Assembly (NCBI GenBank): GCA_965216315.1
Contig: CBDCFN010000016.1
Coordinates: forward strand, 320,001-384,000
Source: a bacterium
GTDB taxonomy: Bacteria; UBA10199; 2-02-FULL-50-16; JAJFLM01
Direction: 5' to 3'
DNA length: 64,000 nucleotides
The position numbers are program-made. Shown one piece after another: positions 27,001 through 33,000 of the stretch. Position 1 is the stretch's first letter. Every line of letters begins with the position of its first letter.

Positions 27001-30000
27001 AGTATTGAGGAGGTCCTTTTTGCCCAGAGACACGCAGACCCAAGATCAGGCGGCGCCGGAGCCGTTTCGCCCCCGCTATCCGGCTATTGAAAAGTTGGTT
27101 GATTCTGAGGACTTTGATGCCCTCAATCACAATTATGGCCAGGCCTATGACGAATTGGAAAAGCTGGCCAAGCAAAAAGGGGTGGGTGGATCGCGTGATT
27201 CCAAAAAGGCCATGAAGGCCCTCGAACTAGTGATGGATCTGCTGAAGTATCTCCTGAAGCTGAAGTACGAATATTTGGCTTCTATAGAGGGTGGGGATCA
27301 AAGTCCCCAAAAAAATCTTTCTGGAGACACGCAACTCCAGGGAGAGCGGGTGCGATAATTTTGGTGAAAGGATAGAAGACCCAGATGACATTAGCCGCAA
27401 TTGAACCCAAAGCCCTTCGCGTTCAGACAGGAGCCCCCTCGACCCCCAAAGGTCCGGGTTTCTCTGAAATCATGTCGGCTTTGGCGCCTGCGGCGGCTGA
27501 AAGCACTGGGCTCGCGACGAATAATGCGAATGCGGCTTCCCTGACGCACGCAGCGCTTACGGGCGCGGCAGTGGCGGCGGGTCCTCAAACGGGGGCCTAC
27601 GGTGGGACTTATGGGATGAGTACGCAGTCTCCTTTCTCTTCCGCCGGATACGGCGTTCCCGACAGCCTCGGGACCGGTTATTCGAGTGGAACTTACGCCG
27701 CGGGTGGCTCCACCGGCGGTTTCGGCGCAGCTATTGGCGGGGGCTCAGGCCTTCCGACCGATCCCTTCATGCAGCAGGATTATCTACTCAATAAAATGCG
27801 TGATACCAACATGCAGATGATCCAGATTCAGGCCTCGATTCAGCACGAAAACCGGCGCTGGACGACCAATTCAAATATCTTAAAGGCAAAACACGATACG
27901 GAAATGGCTCAAGTGCGGAACTTCCGGGTCACCTAATTCGTGAACCGAAAGCGCAGCTTCCGCTTCACTCTAGTCAAGGGGGCGAAAACTTTCTCCCCCT
28001 TAACAATCCCCCATCGTGGGGTCTCTTAAGGAGGAAGCCTGTATGGTCCCGATGGAAAACGACGATCTCATCGTCATGATGGAGGCGGGTTACGTCTACC
28101 TTGGCATGCAGAAGTTCAAGGAGGCCAAGGCCGTCTTTGAAGGGGCCGCCGTGCTCGCGCCGGAAAGCGAGGTTCCACTCGTAGCGCTCGGAAGTGTCTT
28201 CTTTGCCCAGGAGAAATTTGACCAGGCGATCAGCTGGTATAAGAAGGCGCTCAAGAAGAATCCCAATAGTCCCTTCGCCAAGTCCTATTATGGGGAGGCC
28301 CTCATCTTTAAGGGCAAAAAGGACGAGGCCCTCGTTGCCTTGAATGAGGCGATTCAGATGGACCCGAAGGGCCAGTCCGGGATCTTTGCGCAGGCCCTGG
28401 TCGAGGCGGTCAAGGAAGGTTTTGTTCCCCCCAGTCGTGCCGGAGGGGCTGCGCCGTGACGCGTTTGACTCGGCATGCTGTCGTCTTAGTATTGGCCTTG
28501 AGCCTTTGTGCCTGTGGTGAAGTCGTCTTGCACCAAAATCTCAACCAGATCGACGCGGACAAGATACTCGTTCTGTTGGACAAAAATGGGATTGAGGCCC
28601 ATACCGAAGCCGGGACCGACGGACAGGAGACGACCTGGTCGGTGCTGGTCTCCAAATCGGACGTCTCGATGGCGCGCCGGCTCCTTGTCGAAAACAATTT
28701 GCCCGCCCGCCCCGAATTAGGACTCTCCGGGGTCTATAGTGAAAAAGGACTGATCCCCACGCCAGATGAACAGCGGGCCCGTTTTCTGCTGGCGATGAAG
28801 GGGGAGGTCGTGAACGCGTTGCGCAAGATTCCCGGGGTCCATGAGGTCGGCGTCGTGCTGAATGTCCCGCAAGAATCCGAGTTGGCCTTGGGACAGATCG
28901 ATCAGGTCAAACCGTCGGCATCGGTTGTTCTCCGGGTGGCGGATCCGGCGATGCTCCACCAGGAGTTGACCGAAGAAAAGGTCAAACGCTTCGTCGCGAA
29001 TTCGATCAAGAATCTGGAGCCCAACAACGTCATTGTCATTATTAGTTCCGAGAAGAAAGATACGACGCAGCTCGGTGGGACCGTGTCGGCGCCGGGCGCC
29101 TTGCCGCCGCCCCCGCGTAATCCCCCCCCACCGTCGCCCGAAGGCGGACCGAGTTCGGATCTTGGTTCCGAGTCGGGGACCGCGGGCGGCGAGATCGTGA
29201 CGGTGGCGGGAATCGAGCTGGATGCGGCCTCCGTGGGCAAATTCCGTTTTTATCTGATTATCTTTTTATGCGTCTTGATTCTCCTCTCGGCGGCGTTGCT
29301 GTTGACGCTGTTCCGTTTTAGTCGGATGCGGCGCAAGGCCAAGCCGCGGCGGCTCGAGGCCGTGCCGATTGAGGGGCAACAAGGAGGGCCGGATTTGCTC
29401 CAGAGCGGCCAGGGAGCCATGGGAGTGGGTCCTGGACCCGGTGAAACGGGGACCGGTGCCTAAGCCCTGCGGCAGGCTCAGGGCAAGCAACTGGAACGGT
29501 TTGAAGAGGCGATAATAGCTATAAGAGGTAGTATATTGTTATGACTGCAGGTTTAAATGGCGTCAATCCCAGCATTATGCGGACCGAGGTCCGCTTTGTG
29601 GATCCGACCCGCCCGAAAATAAAGAAGATTGGTGCCGGCGCCAAGTTTGCGAGCGCCTTAGGGAGTTTTTTGGGACCGGTCGCCTCGATTGCCGGTATTT
29701 TCTTTCCACCGGCCTTTGCGATTGGCGCGGCGGCCTACGGAATGAAGGGGCTGGCCCAGCAGTCGATCATGCGGCAACAGGCGGCCAACGCGCAGCAGCA
29801 AGCGTCCTACCAGGCGCAACAGGGGCAGCAAACGATCTCTTTTATGGGCTATGAAGGCGGGCAGGCGCCGATTCGACCCGCGGCGGGCGGGGGACTGATG
29901 GGCCACCGGCCTCCGCAAGCGGATCCGATGATGGATATCCTCTTTATGCGGCAGGAGGCGACGCAACAGATGATTAATACCGATTATAGACGGTAGCGAA

Positions 30001-33000
30001 AGGGAATGTATGGGGGTGCATCGACTCGATTCAAATAAAGTTCAACGTTCGCGCGCCGCGGATCCAGCGGCCGATTCCGCGACAAGCGGCGCAGGAACGG
30101 CCAAGGGCCCCGCGGAAGTATTGCCGTTTCCTTTTACGGAGATGCTGACGGTCGCGGGTTTTCGGGTCCCGACCCAATGGCAAGCGCACCCACAATTAGC
30201 GCAACTCCGCCAGAATGCGGAACATACCGCCGGTTTGGACCTTTCCTCGTTTCCACCGGAGATTCAGGAGGATATCCGCACGATGCTCGAATTTGCCGAG
30301 TCCCCGACCTTTAAGCGGCAGATGCAGGCCCTGTTGGATATTGACGTCCCTGACAACGATTCGGCGTAGCGTCAGAACGTTCGAATCGCCCCAAAATGAG
30401 GTCTCCAGGCCCCATTTTGAAACCCTCTGGCGCATTGCGTTACCGAAAAGCTGTTTGCCAATTTTCGAAAAAACTCAGTATTGACAATGACTTAGAAGTG
30501 TTGTGGAAGGTTGGGAACAGTTGCCCGCTTTGGCACAAATACTGCATCTTCATCCTGTACGAAGCGAAGGAGTCAAAATCGGATGAGTTCAAAAGCTGTG
30601 AAAAAAGTTGCCAAAAAGAAGAGTCCCCCCGCCAAGCAGAAGAAAGACGAGCGCCGTCATTCGGAGACACGGGATCGTCTGATCAAGCAGTATCTTCCCT
30701 ATGCGGCGTCGATCGCGGGACGCGTGATGCAGATGTTATCGTCGGCAGTCGATTACGACGATGTCATGTGTTATGCGCGTTTAGGCCTGCTTGAAGCCGC
30801 CGAACGCTTTGATCCCAGCATGAACGTCGATTTTAAGACCTTTGCGTACTACCGTATCAAGGGCGCGATCTATGACGGGCTCCGCAAGAGCGGTTGGGTC
30901 CCCCGCGCTCTTTACGCCAAGATCAAGTTTGAGCAGGCGTCCAATAATTATCTTGAGTTTGTTTCTTCCAAGCGTTCGCTCGACGGCGATGAAGACCAAA
31001 AGGCCGCCGAGGTCTATGACACAGTTAACTCCCTCGCTTCAATTTACGTGATCTCGATCGATGCCTCGGAAGAGCCGATGGAGATTGAAGATACCAATGC
31101 CAAGAGCTCCGAGCAGCTCGCCCAGTTTCAACAGCTCAAGGGGCACATGAAGGCCTCGATTGAACTCCTCCCGGCCAAGGAACGCAAGCTGATCAAAATG
31201 TATTATTTCCAGAACAAGACCCTCGAAGAGGCGGGAGCTGAATTAGGTCTGTCGAAGAGTTGGACCTCGCGACTCCACGCCCGGGCCCTCGAAATGCTTT
31301 TCAAGAAGGTGAATGCCCGCATTCATCACTCGCACGGGGCGCAAGCGCCTGCGCAGCCGGACGAAGACACCCCTGATCTGCCGCAATTGCAGCAAGGAGG
31401 CACGCGGTGAGCATCGAAGCGAAAGTCGCTCAAACCGCGACCAAGGTCGCGACCGAAGTTGCCAAGCAAGGGGGCCAAAATCCGCTTCAAACCGGCGAAT
31501 CTCAGTTTATGAACGTGCTGCAGCAGCACGAAATCAAGATGGAAGCGTCCAGCAATGACATTATGTCGATGTTGGGGCAAGATGCCAGCCTCCATCCGGC
31601 CGATAACGCTGTTTCGGCCGATGGCCTCCAAATCCAGATTTCCGACGTCCAAAAGTTGGAATCTGTCGAATCATCCAACAAACTCGGCAATATGTTTGAA
31701 AACCTCAATCGTGATGGGCTCAATATGGAGCGCATTCAGGAGATGGTGATGTCTGGTGAGAAGATGAGTAATCGCGAATTGATGGCAATGCAGGCGATGA
31801 TTCACCAGTCAGCCCTTGAAATCCAGATTGGGGTTCAGGCGATGGACGCCGGGAAGTCCTCGATCCAAACGCTGGTACAAAGGACAACGCAATAGTATAA
31901 CTACAATATGAATGAAGAATTGGCCACCTCAGGCAAGGTCATGGCGGCCTTAGCCATCTTGGAGGGGGAAAGGGATCCGGCGGCACTGTTTCGCTTTGCG
32001 CCGACCGAGCTGGCCGACTCGCTGACCCATTATGCCGGGGTGCTGCGGAGCCGTTTTGCGAGGGGCAAGGCGCAGGAACTGGCAGCGTTGCTCAAGTCGT
32101 GGTCCGAACAATCGCCCGCCTTACCCATCCATGAGATCCATCCGGGCTGGCTCCTTGAAGTCGTCAAAGAAGAGAGTCCGCGCGTCATTGGACTCATCTG
32201 TCGCTACCTTCCCGGTCATCATGTTCGTTTTGTCATCGAGAATCTTCCGCGCGAAATCCGCGACAAACTCCCGACCTTGAATGAAAGTTTCGGTCTCCCG
32301 GTCGAATTGATTAATGAGGTGAAGTCCTTTTTGGGGTCTCGCTTCTTTCAAGGGACGCCGCCCAATGCCGGGGAACGTTTTTCCGTGCGTCATATCCCAT
32401 GGATGAGTGCCCGGGACATTCGTTGCGTGGTGCGGGAGCTGGGCTATAGCGAGTTACGCAAGGCCTTTGTCGGCATGGATGTGCAGGCGATCCAGGCCTT
32501 TCTGACCCGCTTTCCGCTCGAGGAGGCCAAGGAATTGCGGGCCCACATCGAGAAGGGTCCGGCGATTTCTGACGCGGAGCACAAGCGCGCGCAGGCCCAC
32601 ATTGTCGGGATGAATTTAGATGTGAGTTGTGCGGCCGACCTCCCCTATGAAATTGGACTTTCCGCCCTGGCGGAAGCGGTGGCCGCCGATGAGACCGGCT
32701 GGATTGAAGGCGTGGTCGTGCGGCTGGACCCGGCCGAGGGCTACAGCCTCCGTCGTTATGTCAAAGAGGCGCAGGCCAGTGGGCGTTCCGACTCATGCGA
32801 GCGGCGTCAGACGGAATTGTTGGGCTTGATCCGTGAATTGGCCGATAATGGCAAAATTGCCCAGTATTGGGGGAGTCGAGCGGACGACGAAATCACTCAG
32901 AGCGGAAAACCGACTTAAATGGTATAATAAGGGCCGAAATTATGACTGAAATCATTAAACGCGATGATCCCGAAGGACAGCTCAAAGTGAAGGAAACGGA

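Follow-up and report, generated by a model that had tools for sequence, protein, structure and literature searches.

Candidate needle and inner rod proteins of a myxobacterial-type type III secretion locus without a secretin

The window, a 64,000-nucleotide stretch of bacterial DNA, encodes a system for type III secretion (T3SS) in which a 183-amino acid protein, F (27385..27936, + strand), is probably a divergent needle subunit homologous to SctF. It would be chaperoned by the flanking proteins G and E, exported, and stacked on the inner rod protein I into a needle-type filament. An earlier note had concluded that the system is not needle-less; that it has needle genes is well supported, in the case of F by profiles and gene order, and a needle itself would be expected from them. 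F is a candidate rather than an established major subunit, and its forming a filament that crosses the outer membrane is a candidate function read from the genes.

The locus and its inner rod

The reading frames of E, F, G, sctJ and I lie where they had been placed before, within a locus that is indeed a non-flagellar T3SS. All genes located here by window coordinates are on the + strand. The export gate gene sctV (19083..21218) matched TIGR01399 over its cut-off. A membrane protein of FHA-TM-PEGA-TPR-PEGA composition (24707..26869) is a putative SctD; its earlier label is weak, as TIGR02500 covers residues 36–153 only, at 39 bits against a cut-off of 86. Next come E (27020..27358, alternative start 27005), F, G (28043..28459, alternative start 28016) and the inner ring lipoprotein gene sctJ (28456..29463; PF01514, E 6e-23; TIGR02544, E 3e-33, under cut-off). 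A FliA-like sigma factor (30583..31410), retained in the Myxococcus locus, stands between G/J and I (31407..31895, 162 amino acids). A FliG-like gene, sctL, sctN, sctO, sctP, C-ring genes, a fliO-like gene, sctR, sctS and sctT occupy 31908..40514, the SctP/FliK-like length-control protein (35645..36565) matching PF02120 over cut-off (E 7e-10), and sctU lies outside the main locus at C16:805026. Since the genome, which is 98% complete, yielded nothing matching the flagellar rod and hook proteins (PF06429; the control rings in 4 of 14), a flagellar origin of the locus was rejected.

Downstream, four paralogues of 491, 460, 624 and 601 amino acids (42938..50038) are candidate tip or translocon proteins. 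Their N-termini are variable and all share a helical C-terminal domain of about 150 amino acids, whose predicted fold is three long helices (pLDDT = 74). When this domain was searched by sequence, Foldseek and VIA, only general coiled coils came back and no EspA-like or tip match, leaving these candidates with no family or fold match in a locus that also has SycD-type chaperones. Two such TPR chaperones of SycD/LcrH type (TIGR02552, E 3e-21 and 2.5e-19, under cut-off) flank the gene of a 298-amino acid protein (50814..51710) within 50124..52364, and the C-terminal part of that protein matched PF09392 weakly (E 0.0019).

As previously stated, no secretin is encoded in the locus. Two PF00263 matches occur elsewhere in the genome, and a search for SctC (TIGR02516), run without a positive control, gave no match over cut-off in any of the 31 genomes. 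The SctC secretin of its own that marks a canonical injectisome was therefore not found for this system.

The proposal that I is the SctI inner rod was borne out by its homologues. PF17001 was matched by 5 of the 14 phylum members, with no match for the window protein alone; in a set including Myxococcota it was the top family for 25 of 38 members (best E 7e-7), and the PDB matches of the corresponding profile included MxiI (E 0.1). A phylum-only profile matched no rod in the PDB. The homologue set has the conserved C-terminal rod motif, and I is distinct from F. Its gene lies directly 5' of sctJ in Myxococcota and four genes 3' of sctJ in the phylum. The assignment is not new, SctI having already been published for myxobacterial systems.

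The needle-family protein F

F is composed of conserved N-terminal helices (residues 26–59), a disordered Gly-rich region (60–126) and a C-terminal helix (127–181). The Gly-rich segment recognised earlier contains 31% Gly in residues 65–125, and residues 126–183 contain none. The protein terminates in a needle-family helix 55 residues long, and in the F family this needle-homologous helix lies at the very end of the protein. A canonical needle subunit is a helix-turn-helix of about 80 amino acids with a short proline turn. AlphaFold2 modelled the F monomer with low confidence (pLDDT = 59, pTM = 0.26) as a single unbroken C-terminal helix with separate helices at residues 26–59, and no hairpin turn was predicted.

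Both F and I are missed by direct family searches, as had been reported; neither has a Pfam match at E < 1 or an NCBIfam match at E < 0.1. The best PDB match of the earlier work, 7y6c_F, was reproduced at E 0.033, and with a wider profile of 64 sequences it reached E 1e-4, needles making up seven of the nine matches. This chain is the needle protein EsaG33–73; PrgI and MxiH come next, in alignments that run flush with the C-terminus. Needle chains (three distinct proteins) also accounted for 10 of the 13 PDB matches of a phylum profile of the C-terminal region. A control profile from a coiled coil of the same locus had no needle chain among 59 PDB matches, and full-length F profiles matched none.

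Among 47 Myxococcota homologues of F, PF09392 was matched by 24 (best E 4.9e-4) and TIGR02105 by 10 (best E 4.2e-4), each as top family and each under its cut-off. No member of the F family reached either cut-off, the window protein itself having no match. The phylum and Myxococcota profiles matched each other at P 99.4%. Two earlier observations need correction: the Atlas needle_F cluster, given as the top cluster for F, ranks third after two unnamed Myxococcota clusters (19% of its 53 members have the family), and HrpA_pilin, needle_F and HrpF, said to be hit by six, three and two members, were matched by one member each in a 46-member phylum alignment.

Homologues of F were detected in 21 of 31 relatives when the single protein was the query and in 81 of 93 genomes of the phylum when a profile was used, and the E-F-G-J order was confirmed for 17 of the 20 long loci. 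Among 50 phylum loci, 45 have E and G on either side of F, counting as misses the matches L055, L056 and L058, which belong to another paralogue family and two of which adjoin an sctV; E is in position in 47 of the 50. The same flanking was found in 56 of 80 loci of the Myxococcota scan. The tally for J (36 of 50) was not used because it is lowered by loci that end within sctJ. In the short, second locus of myxobacteria, an F paralogue is followed by sctI and sctJ in a needle-rod-ring order. The canonical example of that order is prgI-prgJ-prgK. Members of the F family thus occupy both places typical of a needle gene, one flanked by the sctE and sctG positions and the other preceding sctI-sctJ.

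The C-terminal helix is not confined to T3SS proteins, as 21 of 150 best representatives start in a signal-peptide-like manner, and no T3SS core gene was found in the 16 metagenome loci longer than 4 kb that carry this signal-peptide subfamily. With every score below cut-off, F might then be no needle at all, its last helix being a general secretion or self-association module common to Sec-exported proteins and F itself a translocator-like or other substrate of the SycD class. This is very unlikely. The F family occupies two separate needle positions, F has no transmembrane-type block as judged by eye, and the "stand-alone" copies in Myxococcota are mostly followed by a gene that by eye resembles the small gene of the long locus, with an SctV/FlhA gate present in all five genomes tested that have such copies. 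The chaperone evidence presented below bears on the same question.

Chaperones and a model of assembly

G contains TPRs, falls in the size range of SctG proteins (about 110–150 amino acids) and is encoded directly 3' of the needle gene, in the SctG position. Its matches to T3SS models, all sub-cut-off, were LcrH_SycD (1.5e-10), SctY (4.5e-8) and CdsG (6.7e-8); the translocator-chaperone model outscores CdsG, and class II is not separable from class III by score. Having LcrH_SycD as the best T3SS match of G would suit a SycD-class substrate. According to the review literature, translocator chaperones bind an N-terminal segment of their substrates and needle chaperones a C-terminal one, and the predicted contact of G with F is C-terminal.

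This contact was seen in a predicted G+E+F complex of the Myxococcus proteins, which scored 0.61 against 0.00 for the best control and may pass by likeness to solved complexes. Among solved pairs, 116 of 157 attain the score mark, as do 2 of 215 mismatched ones. Runs agreed in at least 58% of contacts, with a partner pLDDT of at least 61. In the model, the last 25 residues of F lie on the groove of G and are touched by the first short helix of E (residues 11–18), contacts that are here only predicted and that resemble those of the EscE-EsaG-EsaH crystal.

E is small and helical, occupies the SctE position and is presumed to be a small needle co-chaperone. It is orthologous to its Myxococcota counterpart (P 97.9%). 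Its profiles had no SctE match among the best 25 of 36 Pfam families or among 25 PDB matches, and the Atlas was blank. Homology of E to SctE is accordingly not established by sequence; needle chaperones have low mutual homology, according to PMC9426511. The earlier description of F as an SctF needle with its chaperones therefore stands for the needle family and for the TPR chaperone G, from family matches, two canonical gene orders and the complex prediction, and falls short for E as SctE.

From family likeness, gene order and predicted chaperone binding, all of them computed, we infer secretion, polymerisation and the fold of the subunit in the filament. In the cytoplasm, G, aided by E, would hold the C-terminal helix of F and so prevent polymerisation. 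The export apparatus (SctRSTUV, SctN) would secrete the inner rod I first and F second, and F would stack onto the rod to give a hollow filament of needle type, with the SctP/FliK-like ruler fixing its length. Its channel would be lined by the C-terminal helix of F; helices 26–59 may replace the usual N-terminal helix, and the 60-residue Gly-rich stretch may loop outward where the short turn would normally be. At the outer membrane, with no secretin of its own, the system might borrow one, or the filament may be periplasmic.

Myxococcus xanthus and known systems

The earlier note had left M. xanthus open; its F homologue is MXAN_2434 (37% identity over 62 amino acids), of a type found in 32 of 32 Myxococcus genomes. 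MXAN_2434 carries the UniProt name "Type III secretion protein", scored 15.7 bits against a cut-off of 29.4 when tested with PF09392/TIGR02105, and is highly transcribed (6,050–7,132 counts, compared to 1,733–2,233 for sctN). Myxococcaceae also have a needle-like gene of normal size, 71–74 amino acids, which may be their main needle subunit. PF09392 matches its 71–72-amino acid members over their whole length (E 4.5e-5 and 6.8e-5), and several genomes have two to three identical or near-identical copies, including two 74-amino acid copies in M. xanthus DK1622.

This needle-sized, multi-copy gene, together with the missing hairpin in F, raises the prospect that F is a needle homologue but a minor or proximal subunit, with most of the filament built from the short protein in Myxococcaceae and, in this genome, possibly from the 298-amino acid protein or the four paralogues. 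An axial filament would still be present. Such a division of labour appears unlikely: no match to the short gene was seen in this genome, nor was it found as a separate gene in the 31 relatives, its M. xanthus copy has no Pfam match, the E/G pair belongs to F, and read counts for MXAN_2434 exceed those for MXAN_2457, the short gene by position, where reads may split between identical copies. F as the needle subunit remains the preferred reading.

In published work, the needle and SctF are described as absent from the M. xanthus T3SS (PMC3459982, PMC10433427, PMC12075869, PMC12428579), Abby and Rocha's evolutionary scheme places a loss of SctF in this lineage, and the M. xanthus T3SS* is required for prey lysis, with delivery in the absence of needle or secretin an open question and Kil pilus tips substituting for the needle in the current model. 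A literature search, with Thiery et al. 2022 and Konovalova et al. 2010 outside its reach, did not turn up a publication that names a needle gene of myxobacteria. Needle genes appear to be present, M. xanthus included; therefore direct injection into prey may be possible. Tentatively, and with somewhat less than even confidence, the T3SS of this phylum and of myxobacteria, which lacks a secretin, could use an axial filament of MXAN_2434-type subunits, joined in Myxococcaceae by the multi-copy 71–74-amino acid subunits, to pass a borrowed outer membrane pore such as the Kil/Tad or T2SS secretin and inject lytic effectors directly into prey bacteria. If so, the earliest-branching injectisome lineage has kept SctF and its chaperone pair throughout, and needles are older than the dedicated secretin. 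The deletion of Herrou 2025 (mxan_2438–2451) leaves MXAN_2433–2435 and the two 74-amino acid copies intact; with these genes named, the question is open to a direct test in a tractable organism.

The closest known arrangement is a small helical protein, a needle and a TPR protein, as described in reports on EscE-EsaG-EsaH of Edwardsiella piscicida (PDB 7Y6C; PMC9426511) and on YscEFG, PscEFG and CdsEFG (PMC13466201). In the former, the C-terminal helix of the needle is seated in the TPR groove, in contact with the first helix of the small subunit (PMC9426511). F differs in its 183 amino acids with a Gly-rich middle, compared to about 73–85 in EFG-type needles, and in its lack of a predicted short turn; E shows no sequence relationship with SctE, and the window locus has no secretin. 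M. xanthus T3SS* (MXAN_2434–2464) and T3SS(2) (MXAN_5643–5654) have the same genes in nearly the same order (E-F-G, small gene, FliA sigma, I, J, FliG-like, L, N, O, P, Q) and again no secretin. The Myxococcaceae locus has in addition the 71–74-amino acid needle-like gene not found in the phylum, whereas this genome has the four large paralogues and an sctU located elsewhere. SPI-1-type needles have no listed E/G chaperone pair and traverse a secretin of their own; the F-I-J order of prgI-prgJ-prgK and mxiH-mxiI-mxiJ is shared by the short myxobacterial locus.

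Needle-like and inner-rod genes of the T3SS locus

The window contains a T3SS locus of the non-flagellar type with sctV (19083-21218), sctJ, a FliG-like gene, sctL, N, O, a FliK-like ruler, C-ring genes and sctR, S and T, while sctU lies on the same contig outside this locus. No flagellar rod or hook match was found in the genome (98% complete). Its two secretin-domain matches are both far from the T3SS locus, one read as lying among the genes of a type II secretion operon and the other being a 253-aa protein. The SctC cut-off was passed by none of 31 related genomes, nor by the control genomes, making this a test without a positive. 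On the minus strand (22281-24669), a 413-aa TPR lipoprotein-like gene adjoins sctV and an FHA gene, as it does in Myxococcus, and a 381-aa gene has weak TolB_N/FlgO matches; either may be a pilotin or an outer-membrane part. Between sctJ and a sigma factor lie two conserved genes (29541-29996 and 30010-30369) whose family is unknown.

Myxobacterial systems without secretin and SctF are described, with SctF taken as lost, in the available part of PMC3459982, and such terms as needle-less or degenerate occur in the available parts of PMC10433427, PMC12075869, PMC12428579, PMC11509652 and PMC10196010. An earlier note proposed that the locus nevertheless encodes both a needle and a rod. The candidate needle gene F (27385-27936) encodes 183 aa, comprising conserved helices (26-59), a Gly-rich disordered stretch and a C-terminal helix (127-181), and is detected by profile in 81 of 93 UBA10199 genomes. 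As single proteins, F matched nothing in Pfam or NCBIfam and the rod candidate I (31407-31895) matched no family, as had been noted for PF09392 and PF17001.

A profile of the last 62 residues of F (46 sequences) was searched against the PDB at E ≤ 10. Of the 13 chains returned, 10 were needle chains from three proteins (EsaG, PrgI and MxiH), each aligned flush to the C-terminus. The best match claimed earlier, EsaG chain 7y6c_F, was recovered at E 0.033, and at E 1e-4 with a wider profile of 64 sequences from both phyla, 5 of them from a short 71-74-aa gene; with this wider profile, needles were 7 of 9 PDB matches. A coiled-coil profile from the same locus gave 59 matches, none a needle; full-length F profiles missed the needle chains. 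PF09392 was matched by just 1 of 46 phylum members, and was the top family in 24 of 47 Myxococcota members, as was TIGR02105 in 10, none above cut-off. The F profiles of the two groups match at P 99.4%. The Atlas needle cluster, previously ranked first for F, is third, with the family carried by 19% of its members, and an AlphaFold2 model did not predict a hairpin (pLDDT 59, pTM 0.26). The identification of F as a divergent SctF is favored by its C-terminal matches and gene order, but not by family cut-offs or the predicted fold.

I and F are distinct families. For 5 of 14 phylum members of I the top family is PF17001; with Myxococcota members included this holds for 25 of 38 (best E 7e-7), and the I profile matches MxiI at E 0.1. 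The SctI assignment is supported by way of homologues; since SctI is already reported in myxobacterial systems, it is annotation, not discovery.

Gene order and Myxococcus xanthus

The small helical gene E (27020-27358) precedes F and the TPR gene G (28043-28459) follows it in 45 of 50 non-duplicate phylum loci. The order E-F-G-J, earlier claimed for six of six loci, occurs in 17 of 20 long ones. A scan of the genome_contigs set found 281 relatives, of which 80 were kept, nearly all titled Myxococcota or Deltaproteobacteria. E and G were present in 56 of these, usually in the order E-F-G-small gene-sigma-I-J-FliG-like-L-N-O-P-Q, and the E profiles of phylum and Myxococcota match at P 97.9%. 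In the short myxobacterial locus (three examined: L144, L159 and L160), an F paralogue lies immediately 5' of sctI and sctJ. The order prgI-prgJ-prgK likewise places needle before rod and ring, so the F family occupies both known needle-gene positions. In two loci (L069, L070), a 1,082-1,408-aa gene takes the place of sctJ after E-F-G-small gene-sigma-I. A separate paralogue family stands in tandem at L055:7918-12853, L056:8529-13121 and L058:8171-10830, adjoining sctV in two of the three, and reads, in some genomes of the phylum, as one more reduced T3SS-like cluster.

M. xanthus, left unchecked by the earlier note, encodes an F homologue. F was found in all 32 genomes of the genus to which G093 belongs, and one of them encodes a protein identical to DK1622 MXAN_2434. 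Over 62 residues, MXAN_2434 shares 37% identity with F of the window. PF09392 is the sole Pfam family that it matches at E ≤ 0.1 (E 0.017, or 0.0016 with the last 60 residues). In the available part of PMC11804543, the annotations (MXAN_2433 hypothetical, 2435 TPR, 2437 sigma, 2438 hypothetical, 2442 SctN) agree with the order E-F-G-sigma-sctN. Transcript counts there are 6,050-7,132 for MXAN_2434 against 1,733-2,233 for sctN. MXAN_2434 is up with B. subtilis (log2FC 0.82, padj 0.0018) and C. crescentus (log2FC 0.52, padj 0.018), while sctN is down; an E. coli row is not listed there. A 172-175-aa protein with a signal peptide and a terminal Phe, encoded where the Myxococcus locus ends (L161:13618-14133, L163:5506-6030), reads like a small outer-membrane beta-barrel.

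The 71-74-aa gene sits between SycD-type chaperones in the long Myxococcaceae locus, with three identical copies at L161:6726-7817, one at L163:13730-13942, three at L186:12286-13453 and two at L219:2696-2917 and 5090-5311. Several copies each occur in G141, G148, G156, G160, G166 and G181, and DK1622 has two accessions, by position MXAN_2457 and a neighbour. Of five members tested, two matched PF09392 over their full length (E 4.5e-5 and 6.8e-5) and two weakly; the M. xanthus protein gave no match at all. A profile of the short gene also has 7y6c_F as its best PDB match (E 0.023), and the gene is homologous to F at P 95%. Because of its size and copy number, this gene is a strong candidate for the major needle subunit in Myxococcaceae. 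It was not found in the window's genome or, as a gene of its own, in 31 relatives. For this phylum the clearest candidate is F, and a 298-aa gene at 50814 comes a weak second.

The helix outside T3SS loci

The F helix profile matched 2,814 representatives at E ≤ 0.001, and a crude hydropathy rule assigns a signal-peptide-like start to 21 of the best 150. A metagenome scan with this subfamily gave 30 loci, with E or G beside the gene in 2, and none of the 16 loci longer than 4 kb held a T3SS core gene; thus the helix by itself is not diagnostic. Lone copies in Polyangiales and similar genomes are different: most of them, by eye, precede a gene like the small gene of the long locus; all five such genomes tested have an SctV/FlhA gate. 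Signal-peptide proteins of 150-1150 aa encoded in L224-L226 and L230-L248, well away from any T3SS gene, terminate in a needle-type helix, possibly reusing a polymerising helix. L222:3947-7479 is a tandem array of about 8 genes of about 100 aa with a common N-terminal leader, three ending in such a helix. On the window's own contig, a 480-aa stand-alone gene (G000:C16:1437033-1438472) has a weakly F-like terminal helix (E 0.043) and no Pfam match.

Proposed assembly and comparison with known needle complexes

In the proposed assembly, the C-terminal helix of F would be held by E and G, the export apparatus would secrete I first and F afterwards, and F would polymerise on the rod, with the ruler controlling this step. 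Substrates that follow, carried by SycD-type chaperones, may cap the filament, with candidates at 42938-51710, for which fold searches were uninformative. Four paralogues there (42938-50038) have unrelated N-termini and a common C-terminal helical domain of 150 aa; the family occurs in 17 of 93 phylum genomes, mostly in 2-4 copies, and its members are candidates for tip or translocon proteins that can replace one another. Computation supplies the homology, the gene order and the predicted binding; that F is secreted, polymerises and crosses the outer membrane is inferred at most. By homology, the "needle-less" T3SS of this phylum, like that of Myxococcus, very probably includes needle-family genes and a chaperone pair. 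F is probably a polymerising needle subunit, and a filament reaching prey is a more doubtful proposition. A literature search, which covered papers rather than the supplements that may bear on novelty, found none naming a needle gene in these systems.

The complex was predicted from G, E and the C-terminal 60 residues of F, all from Myxococcus sp. RHSTA-1-4, using a 47-row alignment for each. It scored 0.61 against 0.00 for the best control; 116 of 157 solved pairs and 2 of 215 mismatched ones reach the mark, which is roughly applicable here. Contact agreement between runs was at least 58% and partner pLDDT at least 61. E has no sequence link to SctE, and G scores higher with the SycD model than with CdsG. 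Needle chaperones are treated in the available parts of PMC9426511 and PMC13466201, and the score may reflect likeness to solved complexes. In the model, F residues 36-60 lie on G and are touched by E residues 11-18. The predicted arrangement resembles that of EscE-EsaG-EsaH in the available part of PMC9426511, the source of crystal 7Y6C (EscE-EsaG33-73-EsaH), where the needle helix likewise lies on a TPR partner and is touched by the small subunit.
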